This document shows positions 3,508 to 63,820 of a stretch of 64,000 nt of DNA, one piece after another. Position 1 is the stretch's first letter. Every line of letters starts with the position of its first letter. The notes below the pieces were generated by a model. It had not been told where the DNA came from. It did not search any database and was given only the letters and a program-made list of their open reading frames with translations. The DNA is from Flavobacteriaceae bacterium (lineage in GTDB: Bacteria; Bacteroidota; Bacteroidia; Flavobacteriales; Flavobacteriaceae). The position numbers and the translations under genes are program-made. The DNA lies in contig CBFHWU010000002.1 in the NCBI GenBank assembly GCA_965659665.1, forward strand, positions 12,336 to 76,335. Direction: 5' to 3'.

Positions 3508-4631
3508 GATAATGTTTGTTGTAAGGCATTGAAAAATTGGTCAATATGTTTTTTTTGTACGGTCAGTGGGGGTAGAATACGCAGCAGGTTTTTATTACTA
3601 CTTCCCCCTGTAAAAATGCGATGTTCGTAAATAAGTTTTTTGCGAAGTTCACTTACTTCATATTCAAATTCTAGGCCAAGCATCAAACCACGTCCCTTGA
3701 TGTGCTTGACTGCTGAAATTTCTTCAGCTTTTCGTACAAAATAATCACCCATATGGGATGCATGTTGCTGCAATTTTTTCTTTTTTAATACTTCTAAAAC
3801 AGCTAACGAAGCACTACAACCTAAATGATTGCCTCCAAAAGTTGTTCCTAGCATACCATACTTGGGTTTGATATCGGATCGAATTAATATACCTCCTATT
3901 GGAAATCCATTTCCCATCCCTTTAGCTATTGAAATAATTGATGGGGTGATGGGATAATGTTGATAAGCAAAAAATGTTCCTGTTCGTCCAAAGCCTGATT
4001 GTACTTCATCGGCAATCAATAGAGCACCATAGCGTTCACATAATTTTTCCATGGTTATCACAAAATCGTGATTAGGAGTATCTAATCCGCCCACTCCCTG
4101 AATAGGTTCAAATATGACCGCGCATACGTCCCCTTGTTGAAGTTCCTTCTCTAACAAAACATCATTATCAAAAGGAAGGAAAGTGACTTTTTGTTGTAAA
4201 TTTAAAGGAGCATTTATTTTTTTATTATCTGTTGCAGCCACAGCAGCACTGGTTCTTCCATGGAAGGCATTTTTAAAAGCAATTATTCTAGAGTTACCTG
4301 TTTGAAAAGAAGCAACTTTAAGTGCATTTTCGTTAGCCTCAGCACCCGAACTACACAAAAATAATTGAAAACCTTTACAACATGACTGGCGTTCAATTTC
4401 GTCGGCTAATTGTTGTTGAAGCGGATTATGAATGGCATTAGAATAAAACCCAATTTTATTGAGTTGACGTCTGATTTTTTTGACATAAGTGGGGTGTTTA
4501 TGTCCAATAGATATCACGGCATGTCCTCCGTACAAATCTAAATACTTTTTTCCATTTTCATCAAAAACATACACGTCTTTAGCGTTTATTGGGGTAACAT
4601 CATAAAGTGGATACACATCAAATAAAGGCAT
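3504..4631 (-). CDS. argD: acetylornithine (acyl-ornithine) aminotransferase, class III PLP enzyme
   Basis: 375-aa ORF with a class-III aminotransferase pattern (GGHAVISIGH, ADEVQSGFGRTG). It overlaps the argF' start by 4 nt. Confidence 0.88.
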   Translation of the reverse strand: MPLFDVYPLYDVTPINAKDVYVFDENGKKYLDLYGGHAVISIGHKHPTYVKKIRRQLNKIGFYSNAIHNPLQQQLADEIERQSCCKGFQLFLCSSGAEANENALKVASFQTGNSRIIAFKNAFHGRTSAAVAATDNKKINAPLNLQQKVTFLPFDNDVLLEKELQQGDVCAVIFEPIQGVGGLDTPNHDFVITMEKLCERYGALLIADEVQSGFGRTGTFFAYQHYPITPSIISIAKGMGNGFPIGGILIRSDIKPKYGMLGTTFGGNHLGCSASLAVLEVLKKKKLQQHASHMGDYFVRKAEEISAVKHIKGRGLMLGLEFEYEVSELRKKLIYEHRIFTGGSSNKNLLRILPPLTVQKKHIDQFFNALQQTLS

Positions 4632-4633
4632 GA

Positions 4634-5428
4634 TTAATTTTTTGAGATGATATTAATTTTATTGTAGGAGGCAACGATTCCTTTGATTAAAGAGGAACTT
4701 AATCCTTGATGTTCCATTTCATTCAGGCCTTCAATTGTGCATCCTTTAGGAGTGGTCACTTTGTCGATTTCTTGTTCAGGATGTGAGTCTGTTTCGATAA
4801 GTAAGGAAGCAGCTCCCAAAGCAGTGTACATCGACATCTTCATCGCATCATTGGCATCAAATCCAAGTTGTACTCCTCCCTGGGTTGTGGCGCGTATTAA
4901 ACGCATCCAAAAAGCGATTCCAGAAGCACATATTACAGTGGCTGCTCGCATTAGGCTTTCTTCAATGATGATACTTGTTCCTAAGCTGTTAAATATGGCT
5001 TCAGCCAAATCAAGCCGACCCTCACCTTTTGTATTGGCACACAAGCAGGTCATGGATTTACCAACCGAAATGGCAGTGTTGGGCATACTTCTAATCAAAT
5101 GAACAGTTGTTCCAACAATTGATTCCATTCGTGAAATACTAAATCCAGTTACTGTTGAAATTAATACATGCTTTTCATTGAGTAAATCTTTAAAAGAGCT
5201 TAGTAAGTCTTCTAATTGAGAAGGTTGAACAGCACAAATAAGAATATCTGAAGAAGCTACAGCTTTTCGGTTATCGTCCATGACTTGAGTATTGCTGTAC
5301 TCTTTCCAACTCGCAATCGAATCTTTGTTTCTTCTTGTTAAAATTAATTGCGTGATGGTATTGTTTGTAATGAGGCCTTTTGCAATGCTAAGGCCTAAAT
5401 TTCCTGCTCCTAAAATGGCTATTTTCAT
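4634..5428 (-). CDS. proC: pyrroline-5-carboxylate reductase
   Basis: 264-aa ORF with an N-terminal Rossmann motif (IAILGAGNLG) and a P5CR-like C-terminal dimerisation region. It is embedded in the arg operon. Confidence 0.8.
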   Translation of the reverse strand: MKIAILGAGNLGLSIAKGLITNNTITQLILTRRNKDSIASWKEYSNTQVMDDNRKAVASSDILICAVQPSQLEDLLSSFKDLLNEKHVLISTVTGFSISRMESIVGTTVHLIRSMPNTAISVGKSMTCLCANTKGEGRLDLAEAIFNSLGTSIIIEESLMRAATVICASGIAFWMRLIRATTQGGVQLGFDANDAMKMSMYTALGAASLLIETDSHPEQEIDKVTTPKGCTIEGLNEMEHQGLSSSLIKGIVASYNKINIISKN

Positions 5429-5432
5429 GACT

Positions 5433-6419
5433 TTAAAATAAATTTGCTTTAAGCTTTAACCCAGTATTTTGATCGAACCCGAACATCAAGTTCATGTTTT
5501 CAACTGCCTGACCAGAGGCACCTTTTAATAAGTTGTCAATAATACTTGTGACTAATAATTGATTTTTGTGTTGGTGTATATGCAACACACAATTGTTGGT
5601 GTTGACCACTTGTTTTAAAAAAATCTCATTTTTTGACACAAAAGTGAAGGGACTTGTTTGATAAAAATGAGTATACATTTGATAAGCGTCTTCTAATGAT
5701 CCTTCATATTCGGTGTATGAAGTAGCAAAAATTCCTCTTGAAAAATTTCCTCGTATTGGCATAAAGTTTAACTCTATTTCAGAGCCTTGCAACGATTCTA
5801 ATGTTTCTCCAATTTCTCCGAGGTGTTGGTGGGTAAAAGGTTTGTACCACGAAACATTGTTATTTCTCCAACTAAAGTGTGAGGTAGCCGAAGGCTTTAT
5901 ACCCGCACCTGTACTCCCCGTTATGGCATTGATATGAACGGAGTTTTTAAGTTGATTATTTGAAGCTAAAGGAAGTAAAGCCAATTGAATTGCTGTGGCA
6001 AAACAACCTGGGTTGGCAATTGCCTGGGCAGATTTAATAGCTAATTTTTGATATTCAGGCAATCCATAAACAAATGATTTACCCATGTAGATATGATCGG
6101 AATTAAGCCTAAAATCAGTACTAAGATCAATGATTTTTGTATTATCGTTAAAAACATTTTCATGTAAAAACGTCCCAGAATTTCCATGCCCTAAACACAA
6201 AAAAAGGACGTCAATATCAGGATTTATTTCTTGGGTAAAAATCATGTCAGATTTTCCTAATAAATCAGGATGAGAACGGTATAATTTTTCAGTTGCCTGT
6301 GTGGTACTATACACAAAATCAAGGGTAACGTTCGGATGATCAAGCAATAATCGAAGTAATTCACCACCTGTATATCCAGATCCTCCGATTACTCCAACCG
6401 AAATTTTATTTGTTGACAT
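5433..6419 (-). CDS. argC: N-acetyl-gamma-glutamyl-phosphate reductase
   Basis: 328-aa ORF with VGVIGGSGYTGGEL and the catalytic-Cys motif NPGCFATA. Confidence 0.9.
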   Translation of the reverse strand: MSTNKISVGVIGGSGYTGGELLRLLLDHPNVTLDFVYSTTQATEKLYRSHPDLLGKSDMIFTQEINPDIDVLFLCLGHGNSGTFLHENVFNDNTKIIDLSTDFRLNSDHIYMGKSFVYGLPEYQKLAIKSAQAIANPGCFATAIQLALLPLASNNQLKNSVHINAITGSTGAGIKPSATSHFSWRNNNVSWYKPFTHQHLGEIGETLESLQGSEIELNFMPIRGNFSRGIFATSYTEYEGSLEDAYQMYTHFYQTSPFTFVSKNEIFLKQVVNTNNCVLHIHQHKNQLLVTSIIDNLLKGASGQAVENMNLMFGFDQNTGLKLKANLF

Positions 6420-8437: not shown

Positions 8438-9727
8438 GTGAAAAAATTTCCCCTTACAAATACTGCTCATTTTTCGAGTCAACTATTGTGCTGGGTTAAA
8501 AAATTTGAAGTCCATTTGTGGTTAGATTCTAATCAATATCAGCATAAACATAGCACTTATGGAAGCATATTGGCCGCTGACCCTATGAGTGAAATCTCGT
8601 CTCCATCAACAGGTTCATTTGATATTTTAGAAAGGTATATTAAGTTAAAAAAAGATTGGTTGTTTGGGTACTTGAGTTACGATTTAAAAAATGATCTCGA
8701 AAACTTAGATTCCTCTAATGCTGATTCATTGAAGTTGCCTGAGATGTATTTTTTTCAACCCAAAAAAATATGGATTATTGAAAGTAATTGTGCCAGTGCT
8801 CATTATACGAATCAAGAAGATATTGAAAATGATTGGTTGGAAATTCAAAACACCCAACCTATTTCAGAGACTTCAACTTCATTAGAGTTGAAACCAAAAT
8901 TCACCAAACAAGAATATTTAGATGCTGCACAGCAATTAATTCAGCATATTCACCGAGGGGATATTTATGAAGTGAATTTTTGTATGGAATGGTTCGCTGA
9001 ACAATGTAAAATAGTCCCTTTATCGGTATACCAACAACTTAATAAAATATCTAAAACACCTTTTGCTGCTTATTTCAAAAAACGTGAGCATTATCTTATT
9101 TGTGCGTCTCCTGAGCGTTTTTTAAAAAAAACAAACACTCGTTTGATTTCTCAACCCATTAAAGGAACAGCAAAGAGAGACCCGGATGATGTCCTGGACA
9201 AATCGTATGCTTTTCAATTGGTCAATAATAATAAAGAAAGAGCTGAAAATATTATGATTACTGATTTGGTTCGAAACGATTTGTCTCGTGTAGCTAAAAA
9301 GAGAACAGTACAAGTTTCAGAACTGTGTCATGTGTATCCGTTTGAGCAGGTACATCAAATGATCACGACTATTGAAGCAGAGCTTGACTCCTCATTTGAT
9401 GGGCTGGATGCCATCAAAGCTTGTTTTCCTATGGGTAGCATGACGGGCGCACCAAAAATTAAAGCGATGAAACTCATAGAAAACTATGAACAAAGCAAAA
9501 GAGGATTGTACAGTGGCTCGGTAGGTTATTTTACGCCTAAAGGAGATTTTGATTTTAATGTGGTAATTAGAAGTATGATTTATAACGCAAAAAAAGAATA
9601 TCTTTCCATTCAAGTTGGAAGTGCATTGACAGCTGCTGCAAATCCAATTGATGAATTTCAAGAATGCCAACTAAAAGTAAAAGCTCTGAAAGAAGTACTC
9701 CGCTATCCGGCTCTAACTAAGGCCTAA
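8438..9727 (+). CDS. pabB: aminodeoxychorismate synthase component I (chorismate-binding enzyme)
   Basis: Chorismate-binding family pattern (GDIYEVNFC, PERF, GTAKR, PMGSMTGAPK). The ORF is open from 8273, but residues encoded before about 8438 are AT-rich hydrophobic junk. I prefer the in-frame GTG at 8438 (VKKFPLTNTAHFSSQLL). ATG 8333 and ATG 8273 remain possible. Confidence 0.75.
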   Translation: MKKFPLTNTAHFSSQLLCWVKKFEVHLWLDSNQYQHKHSTYGSILAADPMSEISSPSTGSFDILERYIKLKKDWLFGYLSYDLKNDLENLDSSNADSLKLPEMYFFQPKKIWIIESNCASAHYTNQEDIENDWLEIQNTQPISETSTSLELKPKFTKQEYLDAAQQLIQHIHRGDIYEVNFCMEWFAEQCKIVPLSVYQQLNKISKTPFAAYFKKREHYLICASPERFLKKTNTRLISQPIKGTAKRDPDDVLDKSYAFQLVNNNKERAENIMITDLVRNDLSRVAKKRTVQVSELCHVYPFEQVHQMITTIEAELDSSFDGLDAIKACFPMGSMTGAPKIKAMKLIENYEQSKRGLYSGSVGYFTPKGDFDFNVVIRSMIYNAKKEYLSIQVGSALTAAANPIDEFQECQLKVKALKEVLRYPALTKA

Positions 9728-15851: not shown

Positions 15852-17221
15852 TGTAGATATTTAAGAAAAAACTTGACTAAAGGTAATGACTTTTTATAGG
15901 GAGCATAACGTGCTTTAAAATCAAACCTTGTACTTCTGTGGATGTAGGGTTTTTGATGGCTAAATGTATGAAAACTTGTTTTGCCGTGATAGGCACCCAG
16001 TCCACTGTGGCCAATACCTCCAAAAGGGAGATTTCGATTAGTAAATTGAATTACCGTATCGTTAATCACTCCCCCTCCAAATGAAAAAGTGTTCATTAAT
16101 TTTTTTGCCCATCCCTTGCGCTCACTAAAAACATAAAACGAGAGAGATTTTTCATACTGTGTAATCACTTCTTTAATCTCATTTTCGTCTTGGTAAGGGA
16201 TGATGGGAAGAAGGGGACCAAAAATTTCTTCTTTCATCACTAAAGATGATAAATCAGTGACTCTCAATAAGGTGGGTTGAATGTATTTGGTGTGCTCATT
16301 TGTCTTACCACCATAAGCGATCTCTTGATTGTACAATAAAGATGTTAATCGATCAAAGTGATGAGCGTTCACTATTCGTCCGTACTCTTCTGATTGTTCT
16401 GGATTTTCAGAGTAAGATCGTTCGATTTCTTTTTGTAAAGCAAACGTTAAATATTCAACAATAGACTGATGAGCCAAGATATAGTCAGGTGCAATACACG
16501 TTTGTCCACAATTTAAAAACTTTCCAAAAACGATACGTCTTGCGGTTACTTTTATATTTGCTGTTTGGTCAACGATGCAAGGATTTTTTCCTCCTAATTC
16601 AAGCGTCACAGGAGTAAGATGATTTGCAGCGGCTTGCGCCACTTTTTTGGCCACAGAGAGTCCTCCCGTAAAAAAAATATAATCCCAACGGAATGTCAAC
16701 AGTTTTTGAGCTATTTCTGGACCTCCTTGAATCACCTTAACCCACTCAGGTGGAAAAACAATATCTACAATTTTCTGTAGGATTTCAGCAGTATGAGGAG
16801 CATTTTCTGAAGGTTTTAGTACAACAGCATTTCCTGCTGCTATTGCTCCTACTAATGGGGTTAAAGCTAATTGAAAAGGGTAATTCCATGGTGCAATGTG
16901 CAAGGTTAACCCATATGGCTCATGAATGATATAATCCTTAGATGGAAAATTTATAAAAGAAGGTTGGACTTTTGTTGGAGCGCTCAAATGATTAATATTT
17001 TGAACAAAAAAATCAATTTCACTGATAATTTGTGAAGTTTCACTAAGAAAAACTTCTTCTTTAGATTTGCCTAGGTCATCAAACAATGCCTTTTCGATTT
17101 CTTTTTCTTTTTTAAGTATAGTTTCGCGAAGTGATTTTAAAAGTTGTTTTCGTTTTGAAACTTTAAAAGTATACCCATTATTAAAAAAAAGTCTTTGTCT
17201 TTCAATTAATTTCTCCATCAT
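15848..17221 (-). CDS. NAD(P)-dependent aldehyde dehydrogenase (class 3-like)
   Basis: ALDH motifs ELGGKNP and GQTCIAPDY (catalytic Cys). The ORF is open to 17260, but MMEKLIERQ at 17221 gives a family-typical length. Confidence 0.82.
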   Translation of the reverse strand: MMEKLIERQRLFFNNGYTFKVSKRKQLLKSLRETILKKEKEIEKALFDDLGKSKEEVFLSETSQIISEIDFFVQNINHLSAPTKVQPSFINFPSKDYIIHEPYGLTLHIAPWNYPFQLALTPLVGAIAAGNAVVLKPSENAPHTAEILQKIVDIVFPPEWVKVIQGGPEIAQKLLTFRWDYIFFTGGLSVAKKVAQAAANHLTPVTLELGGKNPCIVDQTANIKVTARRIVFGKFLNCGQTCIAPDYILAHQSIVEYLTFALQKEIERSYSENPEQSEEYGRIVNAHHFDRLTSLLYNQEIAYGGKTNEHTKYIQPTLLRVTDLSSLVMKEEIFGPLLPIIPYQDENEIKEVITQYEKSLSFYVFSERKGWAKKLMNTFSFGGGVINDTVIQFTNRNLPFGGIGHSGLGAYHGKTSFHTFSHQKPYIHRSTRFDFKARYAPYKKSLPLVKFFLKYLQ

Positions 17222-48343: not shown

Positions 48344-49121
48344 AGGATGTTGTTTGAAAAAAGCCAATTCATACCCCAAAAAAAAAGGAATGCGTAAAAA
48401 CGTTAAGTTGTTGAAAATACATCAGTAGGTTGTTAGATTTTAAAGATAGTTGATTTTTGAAACTACACAAATTTTTTTCTATTATTCCATCCGTTTTGAT
48501 GGGTGATTTAAAGGAATTGAGTCTATTATTTTTTTGTCATCGTCACCATTTTGACATGAGATTAATGCATTTAACATAAAAAAAAAATATTTAATTTTTT
48601 CGTTCCAACAATTTTTTCGTTCATATTTCTCCGTTAGCGAGCATTATATTCCGTCATTCAAATATGTCAAATTACTACTATTTGAGTTTATTTTTTCTAT
48701 GATTGGTCTAAAGTATTATATACACTTACATTCTTTATTAAAGAAGTGGGGTTTTCGAAATTAAAACCAATAAAATCATTAAAACATGATGGAGCTGCTG
48801 AAATAATCTCATCATTTGAAATGCTAAAACAGCCTCCTCTAGGAGGATTACCACTGCCACTTTCCGAAAAATATTTTATTGTTGAACTACAATTATTTGT
48901 TGCAGTAACCCTGCCGTTAAAAGTCCATTTATTTGTTCCTCCTACAACATGTGTAGAATACATAACTTGATTTTGTGATATAGTACGTTGACTAGAAACT
49001 TTTTGCCATCATGTATTAGATAAATTTTGTTTGTTCGCATTTTTAATAGCTACATCATATGCAACGGTCTTGTATAAGAACAGTAGCAGAGTAAATTTGC
49101 TATTACTTTCCGATTGAAAAT

Positions 49122-49175
49122 AAAAATAGCAGAAAAGACGAAACCTTTGGCTTAAAACTCTTTACTGCTATTTTT
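49122..49175 (-). terminator. possible bidirectional hairpin terminator downstream of the T9SS cargo gene
   Basis: An 11-bp perfect stem AAAAATAGCAG / CTGCTATTTTT (49122-49132 with 49165-49175) is flanked by A/T runs. The 32-nt loop is long, so the call is weak. Confidence 0.3.
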
Positions 49176-49206
49176 TTATATACCTTGTTAGCAAACGTTG
49201 TTTTAT

Positions 49207-49908
49207 TTATTCTTTTATGAATTTAATCGTATTTCCATTGACAAATTTTAAAAAATAAAGTCCGTTAGGGAAATTTATAATATCAATTTGTTCATTGTTA
49301 GACATAAATCCTTTTTTAATTTCAACCCCCAAAATATTATAAATTCTATAATTCTCTTTGTTAGTCAATCCAGAAACTTTAATAAATTCACTTGATGGGT
49401 TGGGAAATAATTTAATACTATTCTTTAATTCAAATTCGCTAGTGCTTAGAGCTTGGTTAGTAGAACGCTGATATGTAAATCCACCACCAGCACCACCTGA
49501 TGTCCAAGCAGTTATTTTAGTGTCAATATAAATGTCATCATTTATTAAGTGAAGTACTGCATCAACGTTTATTAGACTTTCAGGATTAGATGAATGAGCA
49601 TTATCCCATGTGTCAAATGTTAATGTGCCTACTCCATCAGCAATAGTACCAATTGCCCACTCTGTATCTATCGGACTAGTATAATTGGCATTGTCAAATA
49701 CAGTTTCTTGTGCAATGTTAAAAATTCCCTTATTATCAGCTCTAGTTAAAATAACGTTGGCTGTAAGAGCGTCTTGATTTGCTGGTAGTGTCCAATCAGC
49801 ATAATCTGCTTTTGTCAATGTAATAGTAGGCCCTGTCCATTCAGTTTGACCATATATCTGATTAAAACTGAAAATAAAAATTGTCACTAAAATGTAAATC
49901 TGTTTCAT
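49207..49908 (-). CDS. secreted protein with a T9SS C-terminal sorting domain
   Basis: A signal peptide begins at ATG 49908 (MKQIYILVTIFIFSFNQIYGQ). The C-terminus has the Por-secretion-tail pattern (KLFPNPSSEFIKV...GLYFLKFVNGNTIKFIKE). The upstream in-frame extension to 50124 runs through palindromic non-coding DNA. Confidence 0.75.
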   Translation of the reverse strand: MKQIYILVTIFIFSFNQIYGQTEWTGPTITLTKADYADWTLPANQDALTANVILTRADNKGIFNIAQETVFDNANYTSPIDTEWAIGTIADGVGTLTFDTWDNAHSSNPESLINVDAVLHLINDDIYIDTKITAWTSGGAGGGFTYQRSTNQALSTSEFELKNSIKLFPNPSSEFIKVSGLTNKENYRIYNILGVEIKKGFMSNNEQIDIINFPNGLYFLKFVNGNTIKFIKE

Positions 49909-49953
49909 TGTGTAAATTTTAATTATTAATATTCTGTTTTTAATGTTTGCTAA

Positions 49954-50141
49954 CGCCCGGCTAAACGCAGTGGGGTTCTGGATGTTGAGTTTTTCGAGTT
50001 TACTCGATAAAACACAACATACAATAAGCACCTTATCAAATTGTGATTTAGCCATTGATGTGGCATCGTTTTCTCTCGATGGGCAGTTAAAGCTGTATGT
50101 TAAATTATAGATCATAGCGAGCAATTTGGTTTAGCGGGGCG
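49954..50141. repeat. long-range 13-nt inverted repeat CGCCCGGCTAAAC / GTTTAGCGGGGCG (one mismatch)
   Basis: Read directly: the arms are 49954-49966 and 50129-50141. The right arm abuts the 82-nt structured repeat. It is flanked by CTAAC (49950-49954) and GTTAG (50226-50230). Confidence 0.6.
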
Positions 50142-50224
50142 ATGTAGCACATTTCCAAAGGGACGGGAGCGCGTCAACGGCGTGCGTAGTAACTTTGGTC
50201 AGCTTTTGCTGAATGTGCTACATC
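50141..50224 (+). repeat. GC-rich self-folding repeat, copy A (candidate att/attC-like site or small structured RNA)
   Basis: GATGTAGCACATT...AATGTGCTACATC closes a three-way-junction fold. It is 77/82 identical to 62749-62830 and far more GC-rich than its surroundings. Confidence 0.7.
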
Positions 50225-50550
50225 GGTTAGTATATGAAAAGCAGCGGGCTTTAAGCACTAACTTTTCGTTTTATAACTGACCTTTATGTTATTATTTATC
50301 TTTCCTTTAAGCACCAAAACCGCTATTTTTTTATATACCGCTTAGGTTTGTCTTTTAATAACTTAGACACTTAAACAGAAAGAATAAAAGAGAGCATTAA
50401 GGTTACTATATACGGTGAAGCTTTAGACTTCGACAATATTGATAATCCTCTTTCTTTTCTACTAAAAATCACGTTCAGTTCTGTGAGACTTTGATCTCGA
50501 TTTCAAGTTGTTGTGAATTGAGTAGATTATTCTTTCAACAATCAATAGTT

Positions 50551-55309: not shown

Positions 55310-55854
55310 TTATTTTTTGGTTATTTCGTAGCAAAAATGTTTTTCGTATGCAGGATGATTAATCATTTCAGGATGATTGAATTCTCTCTTTTTTTGTCAT
55401 TCCTATTTTCTTCATAACATTTTGGGATTTATTATTCTTTATCGGGCAGACTGATATTATTTTATTTATACCTAATTCATTAAATGCATATTCAAGACAT
55501 TTCTTTCCACCTTCTGTTGCATATCCTTTTCCCCAGGCATTTCTTTTTAATCTCCAACCAATATCAATTGCAGGAGTAAATGTTGTTTTATAATCTTGAA
55601 ATGCAAGACCTATCATTCCAATAAATTCATTTGTTTCTAATATTTCAGCTGCGTAGTATGTGAATCCATTTTTAGCAAAATGGTTTCTGAGTTTATCTAT
55701 GAGTTTCTCAACTTCTTTTTTCGATAGTGTATTTCGGAAAGTGTTCCATTACATCTTCATCAGAATTTAACTTTGCAAATTCTTCCAAATCTTCGTTTCT
55801 CCATTTTCGAAAACCTAATCTCTCTGATTTAAATATGTATTCGCTTTTATTCAT
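55310..55854 (-). pseudogene. GNAT (RimJ/RimL-like) N-acetyltransferase disrupted by two homopolymer frameshifts
   Basis: Own translation gives three frame segments. The first is MNKSEYIFKSERLGFRKWRNEDLEEFAKLNSDEDVMEHFPKYTIEK. After a shift at the T6 run near 55725 it continues EVEKLIDKLRNHFAKNGFTYYAAEILETNEFIGMIGLAFQ...KIGMTKK. After a shift at the T7 run near 55391 it ends REFNHPEMINHPAYEKHFCYEITKK. Confidence 0.75.
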
Positions 55855-55878
55855 TTTTAAATGGAAGCTAACCCAGTG

Positions 55879-57294
<1,416 letters not shown>

Positions 57295-57897: not shown

Positions 57898-57975
57898 TTA
57901 GTATTCGGTTTCTGTAATGCACTACATCGGTTTTGTTTATGATACCTACCCTGAAAAGGGTGTGTGCTAAACAGC

Positions 57976-59384: not shown

Positions 59385-60104
59385 TTATGTGCTAAGTGGT
59401 AAATCTCTTTCACCGTATGTGTAAGAACTACTTCCTAAGTTTGATATATTGTTGATGTTGCCTACGTTGAACTCAGACTCCCAAGGGTCAAGCAGCCTTT
59501 CGTTAGGGCTAAACCCTGTAAAATCCCCAGTTTTATTTTCATTTCCTGTAATACTTTGCCAGTCATTCCAAATTCTATCAACATTCGCATGATGAAGCCA
59601 GAATAATGGATCTCTTGGGGAGAACATAGGGTTACCCATTATTCCACCAACAAAATTATGCCCCCTGTTATGTGGTCCAACTTCTAGTTGTTTAGTAAAC
59701 GAATAAAAGTCAGAATTAGATAGAATCGTAGTTATTTCGCTTTCATCTGTAAAATCAACATTTCTTATATGTCGGTTATTATTTGGAAGGGCTGTAATTT
59801 TACTTGGGATTTGTGTGTCTTTTGTCCAATCCCAATATGGTATAAAAACACTTGGGTTAATTCTTTGCAAAGCTCTTTCAAAGACAAGTAGATAGGCTCT
59901 ATGCCAGGGTAAAAATCTAAGAAACCCTAATCTTCCTGACATACTACCATGCATTCTATGCCTAGCCATGAAACTTGTTCCCATTGCAGCATGATGCATG
60001 ACAAATGACTCATATAATCCATCATTGAATAATTTTTCGACTGCCGAATTAAAATTTAACCAATCTTCATCGGTCATTTGCTTAGAACTTTTTCTTATTG
60101 TCAT
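59385..60104 (-). CDS. small type-3 copper protein (tyrosinase / polyphenol-oxidase family)
   Basis: 239-aa ORF with a CuA region (HH..M...FLPWHRAYL) and a CuB region (HNRGHNFVGG...DPLFWLHHANVDRIW). No signal peptide is visible. Confidence 0.82.
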   Translation of the reverse strand: MTIRKSSKQMTDEDWLNFNSAVEKLFNDGLYESFVMHHAAMGTSFMARHRMHGSMSGRLGFLRFLPWHRAYLLVFERALQRINPSVFIPYWDWTKDTQIPSKITALPNNNRHIRNVDFTDESEITTILSNSDFYSFTKQLEVGPHNRGHNFVGGIMGNPMFSPRDPLFWLHHANVDRIWNDWQSITGNENKTGDFTGFSPNERLLDPWESEFNVGNINNISNLGSSSYTYGERDLPLST

Positions 60105-60130
60105 TTTATAGTTTATTTAGTTTTTAATTT

Positions 60131-60194
60131 GCTACAACGGTTTGAATATGGTGCGTATCCCGCAGGGTATGCATTATACACCTTGTTGTAGGGC
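60131..60194. repeat. 64-nt imperfect palindrome with AAC...GTT outer boxes (attC-like candidate)
   Basis: The outer box CTACAAC (60132-60138) pairs with GTTGTAG (60185-60191). Two bulged T bases follow. The central stem is GCGTATCC/GGGTATGC, with two G.T pairs that exist only on the plus strand. Confidence 0.5.
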
Positions 60195-60199
60195 GTTTT

Positions 60200-60778
60200 T
60201 TATTCAATAATATCTTCAAAGATTATTTCATTTTTTACTTTGCTAATTGAAATTCTCCTAAAAGCCGGAGCATAACCTTTTTGTCCACTTGGTTCGCAAT
60301 ATTCTCTAACAAAAGCAAATTCAGTTTCATAGTTTTGAATCACTTTGGGTCCAAAATATCTTTTGTCCGACATATAAAGCACCTCTTCAACAGAATTATT
60401 TTCCGCTTGAAAATTGTCCGAGTTTTTGATTTTGTTAACAGCATTATTTTTATCTCTTTCAGATATTTCTAAAGTGAAAGTATGGTAATAATCACCTATT
60501 GCTGACATGGATTCATTATTAACAAGTTCGAACTCGTCAATTAGTTCCATTCCTTGTTCTTCAATAAGTCTTTTTGCATTATTCTCAGTAAAAAGCTGAT
60601 CCTCAAAAACTATGAAGAATGTAATTGCTAGTACAATTAAGCCGTATCCAATTATAAGATATGTTGAGGCCTTTGGATATCCAAGCCGTTTAGGAATGAA
60701 ATATAGGAGAAGTCCAACTCCGACAGGTATTCCTATAAATACAAGCATTAATAAACCTATGAATAGATATTCGTCCAT
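60200..60778 (-). CDS. hypothetical membrane protein (2 N-terminal TM segments)
   Basis: 192-aa ORF with no recognisable family. Confidence 0.5.
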   Translation of the reverse strand: MDEYLFIGLLMLVFIGIPVGVGLLLYFIPKRLGYPKASTYLIIGYGLIVLAITFFIVFEDQLFTENNAKRLIEEQGMELIDEFELVNNESMSAIGDYYHTFTLEISERDKNNAVNKIKNSDNFQAENNSVEEVLYMSDKRYFGPKVIQNYETEFAFVREYCEPSGQKGYAPAFRRISISKVKNEIIFEDIIE

Positions 60779-60859
60779 TGATATTTCGTTTTTTTTAATG
60801 CCCTACTAGTGTGTATATACTCCTTTAGGGGTGTTTATTTTCGTTATGTTTTTGTTTTT

Positions 60860-60898
60860 GTTCAACAATACTTCCCCAATCAGCATGTATTGTTGAAC
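60860..60898. repeat. perfect 12-bp stem / 15-nt loop hairpin at the 3' boundary of recombinase remnant 1
   Basis: GTTCAACAATAC-N15-GTATTGTTGAAC, 2 nt beyond the stop of the 60901-61233 ORF. It has the same architecture as 63551-63589. Confidence 0.7.
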
Positions 60899-60900
60899 TT

Positions 60901-61233
60901 TTATTCAATGTAACAATCATCTAAAGGGTTTTTTATTTTTCCAATTTCTTGAACGGAAACCCGTGTATAAAGTTCCGTTGTTTTGCGGCTATTATGCCCC
61001 AATAAAACCTGTATAGGTTTCAAGCTAACCCCCTGTTCCAATAAATGTGTTGCAAAACTATGCCGCAACATATGTGGAGTTACTCTTTTTTGAATTCCAA
61101 CAAGTTTAGCTTTGACTCCCTCGGGTTGTGTTTGTTTTTTGACCAAATCCAATAACGCCTTGTCATAAGCAAAATCTAGTTTTACAATAGCTTGTTGTTT
61201 GTGAACGTCGGGTATTAATCGTAGGTTTTTCAT
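60901..61233 (-). pseudogene. tyrosine recombinase remnant (internally deleted: about 35 N-terminal plus about 75 C-terminal residues)
   Basis: The C-terminus [39 protein letters not shown]...KIKNPLDD carries the R-H-x-x-R/H...Y catalytic box. At 110 aa, against the roughly 300+ aa usual for this family, it cannot be functional. Confidence 0.75.
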
Positions 61234-61324: not shown

Positions 61325-61870
61325 TAGCGAATTTATTTGGGGCTTAATCATTTTCAAAAGTCCAATTCACCTCCATCAGAATGCTTATCATCCGTATAAT
61401 GGTAAGGAAAATATTTTTTACACACGCTCATTAGGGGTTAATGAGCACAAAACAAGGGTGAACGGTATGTTTTTGTATGGAAATGGTCATTATTAACCTG
61501 ATAAAAGCTGTAGGTAAAATCCTACATTTAGATCGTGAGACAACTCATCAAATTGAACGTTAAATATTAAAAAATAAAAGGAAAACAGAGGTTTTAATTA
61601 GCGGTATAGCATATCAAAAGTGACGAACAAAAGCGAGCTATGATTTCTATGTAAAAGATAACACGTTTATTTAAGTTGTAGCAATTGTCTTTATTTCTAT
61701 TATCATTTTTAAAAAATTAATGTTTCATCATTAAAAACTTGTAGGCTACATCTATTTAAAAATTATTTTTTTTTTATATTTGAGAAACCCAAATTTTTCT
61801 GACCCATGAAACAATTTACCACTCCATGGTTGTTTTCCCTTTTTTTAGTTGTCGATTTAACTTTCAATTA

Positions 61871-62572
61871 ATGAAAAAGAAATTAAGATTAATCGTAGAG
61901 GACAACAATTCTAAAAAAGGAAAATTATTTAATTATTTTATACAGGCATTGGTTATCCTGTCACTTATTTCATTTGCTGTCGAAACTTTGCCCAGCATTT
62001 CACCAAACGCAATCGATATGCTTAATGATTTTGAATTGTTTTGCGTATTGGTGTTTACGTTAGAATATTTGTTAAGGATTTATGTGTCAAAAGAACCTTT
62101 AAAATATATATTTAGTTTTTATGGAATTATTGACCTTTTAGCTTTTTTTCCATTTTATTTCAGATTAGCCTATGATTTTAGAGCTTTACGTATTTTTCGG
62201 ATTTTTAGAGTATTAAAACTAATCCGTTATAAAAAAACGCTTTACAGATTCCATATTGCTGCTAAAATAGTTAAAGAGGAGATGATTTTGTTTTTTTTTG
62301 TTACCTCAATATTCATATTCCTTGCATCGGCAGGTATTTACTTTTTTGAAAATAAAGCGCAGCCCGAATTATTTAGCTCTATATTTCATAGTGGTTGGTG
62401 GGCTATAGCAACATTAACGACAGTTGGTTATGGCGACGTTTATCCTATTACTATGGGGGGGAAAATATTTACTTTTTTTATTCTTTTAATTAGTATTGGA
62501 GTGGTTACAGTTCCGGCAGGATTAATTGCCAGTGCTTTATCTAAAGCACGTGAAATAGAAGAAAAAAATTAA
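61871..62572 (+). CDS. voltage-sensor-type K+ channel, accessory-region paralog (no zinc-ribbon tail)
   Basis: S4-like RALRIFRIFRVLKLIRY and filter TTVGYGD. ATG 61871 (MKKKLRLIVEDNN) is preferred over the 61826 extension. Confidence 0.82.
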   Translation: MKKKLRLIVEDNNSKKGKLFNYFIQALVILSLISFAVETLPSISPNAIDMLNDFELFCVLVFTLEYLLRIYVSKEPLKYIFSFYGIIDLLAFFPFYFRLAYDFRALRIFRIFRVLKLIRYKKTLYRFHIAAKIVKEEMILFFFVTSIFIFLASAGIYFFENKAQPELFSSIFHSGWWAIATLTTVGYGDVYPITMGGKIFTFFILLISIGVVTVPAGLIASALSKAREIEEKN

Positions 62573-62746
62573 ACAAATTGTTTTTAACTAATCAATCTTA
62601 AAAGAACTTTAAAAGGTATTAAAACTAGCGTTACCATGTGTGGTTAATTACGTTGGCTAGGACTAGTTAATAAACAAAAACGAACAATAGGAAAATCCGT
62701 AGGATTATCCGAATACACACAAACAAAACAATTGACTATACTCCGT

Positions 62747-62830
62747 GTTGTAGCACGTTTCCAAAGGGACGGGAGCGCGCCAACGGCGTGCGTAGTAACT
62801 TTAGTCCGCTTTTGCTGAATGTGCTACACC
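62747..62830 (+). repeat. GC-rich self-folding repeat, copy B
   Basis: It has the same orientation as copy A. There are 5 differences in 82 aligned nt by manual alignment. Confidence 0.7.
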
Positions 62831-62946
62831 GTTCAGATAAGCTCAGTGAGCATATCCATTCGGGATGATTTTAAAGTTGATATCTTGCACTAAAATGTGT
62901 TTACGGTTCAGTTTGCTCATTAAGCTTATTGTTTGTTATCAGCATC

Positions 62947-63561: not shown

Positions 63562-63589
63562 CTTACTTTTTCGGAGGGCTAAACAACAC
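63551..63589. repeat. perfect 12-bp stem / 15-nt loop hairpin at the 3' boundary of recombinase remnant 2
   Basis: GTGTTGTTTAGC-N15-GCTAAACAACAC. The arm sequence resembles the 60860-60898 arms (9/12) but in flipped arm order. Confidence 0.7.
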
Positions 63590-63820
63590 GTTATTATTTT
63601 TTTGAATTCCTAAAGAATCAAAAGGATTCTTTATATTTTCAAACCCTTTTTTCGTAATATGTATAAAGTTTTCAGTGGTCTTGCTACTACTATGCCCTAA
63701 TAATTCTTGAATATATCCTATGTCTGTCCCTTGTTTAATTATGCGAGTAGTAGTAAGCGTACCTGTGTTTAAAGTTGCTAATCGTCGCCGGAATTCAGGA
63801 ATGAGTAGTAGGTTTTTCAT
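63563..63820 (-). pseudogene. tyrosine recombinase remnant 2 (more degraded)
   Basis: MKNLLLIPEF... then GTDIGYIQELLGHSSSKTTENFIHITKKGFENIKNPFDSL. It has the same N-terminal codons and C-terminal box as remnant 1 but is only 85 aa. Confidence 0.7.

Follow-up and report, generated by a model that had tools for sequence, protein, structure and literature searches.

What is the 60-base imperfect palindrome that stands between two genes of a Flavobacteriaceae bacterium? The element, which we call E1, lies on the minus strand at positions 60132–60191 of a 64,000-nucleotide stretch of contig CBFHWU010000002.1 (assembly GCA_965659665.1), hereafter "the window". It separates the stop codon of a 192-aa open reading frame (ORF) from the start codon of a tyrosinase gene, 27 nt downstream of E1. 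An original prediction, made from the letters of the window, took E1 for an attC-like site at the boundary of two gene cassettes. Integrons are the textbook system for the capture and shuffling of such cassettes and are defined by the integrase IntI, whose extra domain reads the extrahelical bases of the folded attC site. Here, the window was compared with a set of contigs designated by L numbers, of which L097–L105 are plasmids with class-1 cassettes. We conclude that E1 is very probably the site by which a gene cassette recombines at its 3' end, and thus the equivalent of attC, in a chromosomal integron-like array of a Formosa-like member of the Flavobacteriaceae. E1 is rightly called attC-like; the strict label "integron attC" does not follow.

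RESULTS

The E1 hairpin and its strand asymmetry

We refer to the minus, cassette-coding strand as "top" and to the plus strand of the window, which is the complement of the cassette mRNA, as "bottom". On the plus strand, positions 60131–60194 read GCTACAACGG...CCTTGTTGTAGGGC, or in full GCTACAAC GG TTTGAATATGGTGCGTATCCCGCAGGGTATGCATTATACACC TT GTTGTAGGGC. The 7-bp outer box that had been described, with AAC and GTT cores and flanks that deviate from the integron consensus, was readily confirmed. CTACAAC (60132–60138) and GTTGTAG (60185–60191) of the plus strand are complementary at 7/7 positions; on the minus strand, CTACAAC (60191–60185) carries the AAC of the R'' box and GTTGTAG (60138–60132) the GTT of the R' box at the inner ends of the inverted repeat. 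The two occur as a pair with 35–65 nt between them once in the window, compared to 0.01 expected from dinucleotide shuffles. Likewise, the 14-bp inner stem contains the four reported G.T(U) pairs on the plus strand, which become A.C mismatches on the minus strand. The two extrahelical T bases and the GG/CC step of the original fold hold up as one possible structure, but not as a unique one, since ViennaRNA pairs the GG with the TT. In the family alignment this part of E1 is an asymmetric unpaired spacer, with AA after R'' versus AAACC before R'. The palindromic box reads AAC...GTT on both strands, and the orientation of E1 was therefore read off the asymmetric spacer and the G.T pairs, rather than the boxes. 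A single-base bulge of the class-1 L'' type is present in the Bacteroidales-type relatives described below, and is ambiguous in E1.

Folded as RNA, the plus strand of E1 reaches -26.9 kcal/mol (z -3.5; equalled by 0/200 shuffles) and the minus strand -16.1 kcal/mol (z -1.4). As single-stranded DNA (ssDNA), a 76-nt stretch gave -9.0 kcal/mol (z -1.07) on the plus strand and -7.4 kcal/mol (z -0.71) on the minus strand, and the 60-nt core gave -8.0 and -6.8 kcal/mol, respectively. The strong and asymmetric RNA fold, together with the T-run that follows the hairpin on the plus strand, could be read as an intrinsic terminator or a small antisense RNA hairpin, followed by GGGCGUUUUUUAUU, with no role in recombination. 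However, no plus-strand gene or promoter-supported transcript terminates at E1, and the U-tract of a rho-independent terminator is found only on that strand, where no gene ends. E1 was absent from the output of a scan for promoters and consensus terminators, and Rfam searches, of the whole window at the gathering threshold and of the region from 48 to 64 kb at E<=5, returned nothing relevant. The T-run is the complement of an A-rich stretch after the stop codon, which also precedes the R'' boxes of relatives. An RNA element would, moreover, leave unexplained the cassette-end complementarity, the recombinase linkage and the boundary homologues presented below, and we consider it very unlikely. 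Nevertheless, a lone hairpin such as E1 could be due to chance or be an RNA element, and its identification consequently had to rest on context and on relatives.

E1 is part of an array downstream of a recombinase remnant

All genes from ~42 kb to 61.2 kb of the window lie on the minus strand (Table 1). These ~20 kb encode proteins of unrelated function (tyrosinase, DUF2071, RtcB, GNAT, MBOAT) and are co-oriented with two remnants of tyrosine-recombinase genes. Remnant 1 is directly upstream of the 192-aa ORF, which places E1 ~700 nt downstream of it. It retains approximately residues 1–34 and 303–352 of a ~350-aa protein, and its C-terminus matches the NCBIfam models for XerA, XerD, XerC and IntI. 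The recombinase-proximal region that follows recurs downstream of many relatives, where read-through peptides end in ..SSTIHADLGSIVEQKQKYNGNKHT, and also in L011/L014. It includes a 12-bp perfect palindrome, GTTCAACAATAC-N15-GTATTGTTGAAC (60860–60898), immediately 3' of the recombinase stop codon, and a small hairpin, CACCCCTAAAGGAGT, at 60819–60833. The region stops at an attI-like junction that aligns with ..ACACTAG|ATGTAGCAC in L010, ..ACAATAG|TTAGCAATA in L011 and ..ACACTAG|TTATGGGC in L016. E1 thus occupies the position and has the orientation of a site at the end of the first cassette of an array.

The outer 7-mers of the 60860–60898 palindrome fit RYYYAAC/GTTRRRY perfectly. Its position is conserved, with a compensatory change (GTGGCACAATACATCC..GGATGTATTGTGCCAC) in L011, and it may belong to the attI region or act as a terminator.

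Table 1. Minus-strand features of the window, listed in the direction of transcription, followed by sites and cassettes of relatives. R and L denote the outer and inner boxes of a site; a vertical stroke marks a junction.
Feature	Position	Strand	Sequence or remark
Recombinase remnant 2	63563..63820	-	144-nt conserved upstream/5' region in common with remnant 1, 83% identity
E3, degenerate second copy of E2	62736..62831	-	ends GTGCTACAAC AC GGAGTATAG, the R''-L'' start of an E1-type site
Isolated R''-like box	61675..61687	-	CAATTGCTACAAC; upstream of remnant 1; reverse complement of E1 R' extension GTTGTAGCAA, 10/10
Recombinase remnant 1, internally deleted tyrosine-recombinase gene	60901..61233	-	Pfam Phage_integrase C-terminus; tblastn with full-length relatives
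Conserved recombinase-proximal region	60819..60898	-	80% identical to L010 366–462
attI-like junction	60797..60815	-	ACACACTAG|TAGGGCATT; conserved recombinase-proximal sequence stops, cassette 1 begins
Cassette 1 ORF, predicted membrane protein	60200..60778	-	192 aa; no Pfam family
R'' box with outward extension	60185..60197	-	AACGCCCTACAAC; marks end of cassette of ORF 60200–60778
E1	60132..60191	-	R'' CTACAAC, AA, L'' GGTGTATAATGCATACCC, loop TGCG, L' GGGATACGCACCATATTC, spacer AAACC, R' GTTGTAG
R' box with extension	60126..60138	-	GTTGTAGCAAATT; predicted crossover G|TT between 60138 and 60137
Tyrosinase-domain protein, first ORF of next cassette-like unit	59385..60104	-	239 aa; Pfam PF00264
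Degenerate E1-type site after DUF2071 gene	57916..57975	-	ACACACCC TTTTCA GGGTAGGTATCATAAAC AAAACC GATGTAGTGCATT; motif match, weak fold
Large attC-like site	50212..50346	-	..CCTAAGC GGTATATAAAAAAATAGCGG ... CCGCTGCTTTTCATATAC TAACC GATGTAGCACATT
E2, ORF-less mini-cassette of 84–86 nt	50141..50224	-	start G|ATGTAGCACATT, end AATGTGCTACATC, 13/13 complementary
Long attC-like site of mini-cassette	49942..50153	-	R'' GCTACATC, L'' GCCCCGCTAAACC ... L' GCGTTTAGCCGGGC, R' GTTAGCAAACATT
attC-like site ending T9SS-tail cassette	49056..49199	-	R'' extension AACGTTTGCTAAC, then ..CTTATAC AAGACC GTTGCAT
Site in L011			AGCTAAC AA CGGCTATAAATC...CTTCATAGCC AAAAC GTTAGCG
Site in L021			GGCTTACAAC AA TGTGTAATACGC...GCGCATACACGCACC GTTAGGG
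Site in L030			TTATAAC AA GCGGCTTAACC...GGTTAGCCACC AAAC ATTATAT
Cassette in L011 (attI junction)			start GTTAGCAATA, end TATTGCTAAC
Cassette in L016			start GTTATGGGCA, end TGCCCATAAC
Cassette in L022			start GTTAGCAAAC, end GTTTGCTAAC
Cassette in L016 bounded by E1 homologue			start GTTGTGTGTA, end TACACACAAC

Intact relatives of the recombinase head arrays of E1-like sites

Homologues of the remnants are abundant. Many of them are differently deleted pseudogenes of 108–179 aa, all of which share the N-terminus, the C-terminus (..KIKNPLDD) and the downstream palindrome. Full-length recombinases of ~350 aa were found in L011–L016, L021, L022, L030, L034 and L066, where a run of co-oriented, functionally unrelated ORFs comes after them, and in L011–L015 the recombinase gene comes after housekeeping genes (dnaA ... 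rplS, icd). Each ORF of these arrays ends with the arrangement NNNNAAC-AA-L''-variable loop-L'-~5-nt spacer-GTTNNNN, and the layout of E1 is the same as that of the sites in L011, L021 and L030 (Table 1). Furthermore, an nhmmer profile found homologues of E1 itself at L016 15347–15414 (E 1e-18) and L083 4660–4717 (E 3.5e-6), both of them at cassette boundaries inside arrays. The homologue in L016 carries a complementary 3-nt insertion (AGC/GCT) in both arms.

These homologues also bear on the idea that E1 acts in cis on its neighbours, as terminator or attenuator of the 192-aa ORF, or as 5'-untranslated region or operator of the tyrosinase gene, and has no part in recombination. Its position, with a stop codon on one side and a start codon a short distance downstream, would suit such a role, and palindromes can bind dimeric regulators. 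However, the mRNA (minus) strand folds weakly, contains the A.C mismatches and is not followed by a U-tract; no E1-like element lies upstream of the tyrosinase orthologue in L007 (74% identity); and the genes that come after the homologues in L016 and L083 are unrelated ones. We therefore regard a purely regulatory E1 as most improbable. A secondary effect on expression may exist.

The full-length recombinases consist of a ~90-aa N-terminal domain (..ARWSQS..WYFP..), for which there was no Pfam match, followed by Phage_int_SAM_4 and Phage_integrase domains. Among NCBIfam models they score highest with NF040815, which is named "site-specific tyrosine recombinase/integron integrase" (207–245 bits; cut-off 220). 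The integron integrase model TIGR02249 matches them in two stretches only, at 175–223 bits, which is under its cut-off of 265 and better than XerC/D. BLASTP aligns them with IntI1 at 29% identity, and the IntI-specific region coincides exactly with gaps of 31 and ~10 residues. By these sequence comparisons the family is related to IntI and XerA and is without the domain that defines IntI.

In marine metagenomes (proteins P0044–P0162) we noted dozens of independent internal deletions of the recombinase gene, of differing size, in which the first 12–35 codons, the last ~60 codons and the downstream palindrome are kept. Selection against activity, or deletion between internal repeats, is a possible cause. 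In L016, the recombinase gene and the whole array are bracketed by a ~110-nt direct repeat (~9420–9540 and ~16690–16810), which begins at an R' box (GTTGTATGCCATGCGAGAATG...) and is preceded at each copy by an attC-like site. The recombinase of L016 may thus itself lie inside a cassette-like unit, and the whole platform may be mobile. The cassettes of L016 encode defence-type and beta-lactamase-family proteins.

A second type of site, which we call Bacteroidales-type, is found downstream of the same recombinase family in L030, L034, L036, L066, L064, L035, L038 and other contigs, several of which are labelled human gut metagenome. These arrays are long, with up to 16 sites in 9 kb and very short ORFs between the sites. 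The sites are ~53 nt and very homogeneous, NNATAAC AA GCGGCT(C)AACC..GGTTAGCCACC AAAC ATTATNN, with ATT in place of GTT in R' and a one-base bulge in L''.

Covariance models and covariation

Simple scanners for AAC...GTT plus L boxes proved too permissive in AT-rich DNA and gave a weak contrast between downstream and upstream regions (20/214 vs 9/182). Covariance models were therefore used instead. As a mixed-class MAFFT alignment of full-length sites misaligned the R'' boxes, arm-only mini-sites were used. Model R1, built from nine Bacteroidales-type sites, was searched against 605 kb and returned 58 matches at E<0.3, with up to 16 per locus. All 58 share the strand of the recombinase and lie downstream of it. 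R1 matched no site in the window or in the Flavobacteriaceae-type loci, and the two classes have thus diverged too far to be covered by a single model.

Model R2 rests on the arms of 14 Flavobacteriaceae-type sites, all of them from outside the window. When it was run on both strands of the window, the single match was E1, on the minus strand (28.4 bits, E 0.0025, E-values being rough because they come from a shortened calibration). The training sites score 27–38 bits. R2 sees short-loop sites only, misses the long sites of L011, L014 and L016, and is consequently unfit for counting the sites of an array.

Scoring with an attC covariance model had been proposed as a check on E1. As a surrogate for the canonical model we built R3 from the arms of 12 class-1 cassette sites from plasmids L097–L105, and it recovered class-1 sites, including one that was not in its training set, at E 3e-10 to 2.5e-3. 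R3 gave no match at the other Flavobacteriaceae-type sites, and the outcome at E1 was also negative, as discussed below. In the class-1 control L105 (~3628–5646), a group II intron (ltrA) lies between a cassette gene and its attC, and R3 still finds the displaced site. The insertion of group IIC-attC introns is a known phenomenon.

Covariation between the arms was seen in both classes of site, with 73% and 76% of cells paired versus 17–42% in slid controls, and covariation scores of 0.375 and 0.292 that were reached by 0/500 shuffles; of the two alignments, one was fitted to its structure and the other had its structure derived from the same sequences. As ssDNA, the bottom strand is the more stable in 44/55 Bacteroidales-type sites (Wilcoxon p 1.2e-6) and in 7/9 Flavobacteriaceae-type sites, E1 among them. 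E1 and three relatives have four bottom-strand G.T pairs each. The strand-specific pairs of E1 are, therefore, a family trait and not an accident of one copy. The proposal that the non-coding strand is the structured one agrees with this bias of the family; in E1 itself the effect is small as DNA and clear as RNA.

Cassette ends are complementary across the arrays of the family

In integrons, crossover occurs at G|TT, so that the rest of R' forms the start of a cassette, and the cassette's own R'' forms its end. It follows that the start and end of a cassette should be complementary beyond the shared core. In 35 pairs of adjacent sites from the R1 arrays, positions 6–12 after x|TT match the reverse-complemented extension of the next R'' at 4.69 of 7 positions, compared to 2.25 within a site and 2.33 in random pairs (p 1e-8 and 5e-13). 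The match per position is 0.69–0.86 at positions 5–10, versus 0.21–0.49 within a site and ~0.3–0.4 in random pairs. Position 1 never matches (A versus the complement of C), which is what an exchange point immediately after it would predict. The Flavobacteriaceae-type loci L011, L016 and L022 show 9–10/10 matches between cassette ends (Table 1).

Three cassettes of the window carry the same signature, namely those of the 192-aa ORF, of E2 and of a protein with a type IX secretion system (T9SS) C-terminal tail (ORF 49207–50124). This tail, together with the homologues of the window's sequences, assigns the organism to the Flavobacteriaceae. The cassette of the 192-aa ORF, bounded by E1, starts ..TAG|TAGGGCATT (60806–60797) and ends with AACGCCCTACAAC, the reverse complement of GTTGTAGGGCGTT. 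The latter has GTAGGGC.TT in common with the start (9/10), with a junction that lacks TT. The T9SS-tail cassette starts with GTTAGCAAACATT and ends with AACGTTTGCTAAC, its GTTAGCAAAC (49954–49945) matching GTTTGCTAAC at 10/10 positions. By the family G|TT rule, TTGTAGCAAATT is predicted to be the first bases of the tyrosinase cassette.

Presence/absence polymorphism agrees with these limits. The Formosa metagenome-assembled genome contig L010, the sole species-representative genome with the 22-mer core of E2, has E2 immediately after the recombinase-proximal region with its palindrome, small hairpin and ..ACACTAG. The window places 10.6 kb (60806–50225) between the two, containing E1 and approximately eleven genes, and the blocks of homology between window and L010 stop at junction sequences. 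The suggested comparison of orthologous boundaries was thus informative for L010, but not for the tyrosinase gene. Identical copies of that gene keep E1, and its homologues at 74%, 60% and 56% identity (L007–L009) lie in unrelated contexts without E1 and, hence, carry no breakpoint information. Two Logan contigs from different runs with the tyrosinase gene, L004 and L005, start at ACCGTTGTAGC and CGTTGTAGC, 1–3 nt before the predicted G|TT. These starts are only suggestive of a junction at 60138|60137, and contig ends may have causes other than alternative junctions.

Other sites and putative mini-cassettes in the window

Several further sites lie between the tyrosinase unit and ~49 kb (Table 1). 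The large site at 50212–50346 is homologous to sites in L014 and L016 and forms the right-hand limit of the 10.6-kb segment that is missing from L010. The long site at 49942–50153 folds at -33.7/-38.4 kcal/mol and is 88.6% conserved in L010. The site at 57916–57975 has no recognisable R'' box, and we infer its assignment to the E1 type. E2 folds strongly as ssDNA (-27 kcal/mol, z -6.9).

Two observations raise the possibility that E1 is one copy of a dispersed palindromic repeat with a GTAG-containing end, similar to a repetitive extragenic palindrome (REP), its doublet form (REPIN) or a miniature inverted-repeat transposable element (MITE), and spread by a transposase. The motif CGNTGTAGCAMATT, (C)G.TGTAGCA.ATT, is indeed enriched in the window, with 9 copies seen versus 2.7 expected, and E2 and E3 resemble 86-nt elements with 14-nt terminal inverted repeats. 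However, the copies all lie at 49–63 kb, linked to the recombinase remnants, whereas the three matches elsewhere in the 64 kb carry 2 mismatches each. The 22-mer core of E2 is found in one other species-representative genome, beside the same attI-like sequence, and the homologues of E1 elsewhere lie inside arrays. No RAYT- or IS200-like gene was seen among the ORFs examined, which were not the full ORF set of the window. The "terminal inverted repeats" of E2 (13–14 nt) are explained as the start and the R'' of a mini-cassette. We accordingly rejected a MITE or REPIN identity for E2 and E3, on the grounds of their end complementarity and of the occurrence of the E2 core in one other genome, and read both as ORF-less mini-cassettes. 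A transposase-spread origin for E1 is likewise highly improbable. The conserved interior of E2 and E3, ..GTTACTACGCACGCCGTTGACGCGCTCCCGTCCCTTTGG.., has no Rfam match.

In Flavobacteriaceae-type sites, a second triplet is found exactly 10 nt outside the R boxes, as AAC-N7-AAC at cassette ends and GTT-N7-ATT at starts. Examples are at 60126–60138, 60185–60197, 49942–49954, 49187–49199 and 50212–50224 of the window, and in L011, L016, L021 and L022. The position shows a recurrent A-versus-G mismatch between the two ends and is not a feature of the class-1 attC sites used here. It might be a further contact of the recombinase or of its N-terminal domain.

Among the remaining genes, the small tyrosinase has few homologues (42 matches at E<=1e-20 among 5.8 billion proteins), mostly on contigs of ~1–3 kb, as expected in hypervariable or repeat-bounded contexts. 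A GNAT acetyltransferase gene (55368–55880, minus strand) is split by a frameshift or stop, with its N-terminal part from ~55853 and a C-terminal ORF at 55368–55616, which fits the decay of a cassette gene. The region's only plus-strand gene, for an ion-transport (K+ channel-like) protein, is at 61826–62572, between the two recombinase remnants. No tRNA genes were found.

DISCUSSION

How firmly can E1 be called a recombination site?

The prediction of an attC-like site at a cassette boundary is supported by the recombinase remnant upstream, the arrays of relatives, the match to R2, the homologues and the G|TT signature. On this sequence evidence E1 appears to behave like an attC site by every indirect criterion that we applied.

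Several observations weigh against this identification. The R boxes of E1 fit RYYYAAC/GTTRRRY in their AAC/GTT cores only, with 2/4 of the degenerate positions fitting in CTACAAC and 2/4 in GTTGTAG; AGCTAAC/GTTAGCG of L011 is a relative whose boxes do fit. Folding both strands as ssDNA, which had been proposed as a check, favoured the expected plus strand, but by just 1.2–1.6 kcal/mol, and neither strand beats its shuffles (z about -1). The R2 score is modest and, with filters off, E1 is still the top match but at 19.3 bits and E 0.07. R3, which is narrow and is not the model used by IntegronFinder, gave no match at E1 up to E 10, and the IntI-specific additional domain around patch III is absent from the full-length relatives. 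Consequently, E1 should not be filed as a canonical attC. In the window, the attI-like junction is apparently 3 nt short compared with relatives and does not keep the crossover TT, and several intergenic regions of the array are without a recognisable site. No downstream R'' is complementary to the R' extension of E1, which leaves the tyrosinase unit without a defined end; the sole 10/10 match is the upstream box at 61675–61687, which makes it look as if the recombinase unit and cassette 1 were inserted into a once-single site. Finally, the local recombinase genes are dead.

A model for exchange at E1

The minus strand can be read, in order, as a deleted recombinase gene, the palindrome and small hairpin, the attI-like junction at ~60806, cassette 1, E1 and the tyrosinase unit, with further cassettes and sites down to at least ~49050. 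By analogy with integrons, we infer that the site acts as a folded single strand, and likewise the point of cleavage and the acting protein. The plus strand of the window, the complement of the cassette mRNA, would fold into the imperfect hairpin in which the AAC/GTT boxes pair, while the AA versus AAACC spacer and the G.T wobbles would mark strand and orientation. The recombinase would then exchange strands at G|TT, between 60138 and 60137. As a result, TTGTAGC... would travel with the downstream cassette and ...CTACAAC-hairpin-G with the upstream one, and the junction of a circular cassette would join ...CCG to a TTGTAGGGC-type start.

With both recombinases reduced to remnants, and with degradation of the attI-like junction and of nearby sites, E1 probably survives in this genome as a relic, barring an intact recombinase that acts in trans. 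The array has the look of a decaying sedentary platform, and such decay fits the many independently deleted recombinase genes in metagenomes.

Relationship to known systems

Like integron attC sites, E1 and its relatives are imperfect palindromes at the 3' end of promoterless-looking cassettes, with AAC...GTT outer boxes, inner L boxes, an asymmetric unpaired central spacer and a variable terminal loop. Their lengths range from ~50 to ~215 nt. The bottom strand folds better, the likely crossover is at x|TT, and the start of a cassette is complementary to its own R''. They differ in that the spacers are 2–3 and ~5 nt, compared to 5 and 6 nt in our set of class-1 sites; that the R boxes are off RYYYAAC/GTTRRRY outside the cores; and that the Flavobacteriaceae-type sites have a conserved A.C (top)/G.T (bottom) position and no clear extrahelical base. 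The Bacteroidales-type sites use ATT for GTT, a model derived from class-1 sites is blind to the family, and the partner recombinase is without the IntI-specific domain. In relatives, co-oriented unrelated ORFs, each with a site, lie beside a recombinase and an attI-type point, as in an integron platform. The array of the window shows the same arrangement, partly degraded.

Treponema integrons have an integrase that is co-oriented with the cassettes, and our family resembles them in that the recombinase immediately precedes the cassettes on their own strand. However, the Treponema integrases are bona fide IntI, whereas the family described here lacks the IntI insertion and has the extra ~90-aa N-terminal domain lacking a Pfam match. 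With Xer recombinases (XerC/D and archaeal XerA; NF040815) the family shares its best-scoring model, NF040815, and a Xer-like spacing from KDR to HxLRH. Yet Xer proteins act on double-stranded dif-like sites of ~28 bp, whereas the sites linked to the family are hairpin-forming elements of 50–215 nt in arrays. REP and REPIN elements, too, are short intergenic imperfect palindromes with a GTAG-containing end, but the E1-type copies of the window are confined to the recombinase-linked array and flank cassettes with end complementarity.

Integrons, attC sites, clusters of attC sites that have no integron integrase (CALINs) and integrase pseudogenes are well known. The window resembles a CALIN in having a cassette-like array with attC-like sites and no IntI gene nearby (PMC4889954), and an integrase pseudogene beside an array fits one proposed origin of CALINs. 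The difference is that the adjacent (pseudo)gene belongs to another recombinase family, which relatives have in intact form and in consistent association with the arrays. These arrays are, therefore, not orphaned IntI arrays. Counts of CALINs may already include them. According to surveys in the literature that could be searched, Bacteroidetes have almost no integrons, and for these the IntegronFinder 2.0 survey lists In0 elements only, plus one complete integron in Salinibacter ruber. Full-text searching, of incomplete coverage, turned up neither this recombinase family nor Bacteroidota arrays of this kind, and a recombinase-linked platform in this phylum is apparently undescribed.

Significance

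It is quite possible, and we propose it tentatively, that E1 belongs to an undescribed class of integron-like platforms across the Bacteroidota, with hairpin sites exchanged at x|TT and a recombinase related to IntI and XerA that is without the IntI domain, which is considered necessary for the recognition of folded attC sites, and has its own ~90-aa N-terminal domain. The class may range from Flavobacteriaceae of marine origin to contigs of Bacteroidales that bear the label human gut metagenome, with the recombinase gene co-oriented with the cassettes. The co-oriented arrays, covarying hairpins, bottom-strand bias and x|TT complementarity amount to the fingerprint of integron exchange, here beside a recombinase without the IntI domain. 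For the window, an odd palindrome and several neighbouring repeats are explained as relics of a decayed array. If the wider proposal is true, it would provide a new recombinase marker and new site models for annotation tools, recombination of cassettes at hairpin sites would be possible without the IntI insertion, and integron-like capture would extend to a major phylum, gut Bacteroidales included.

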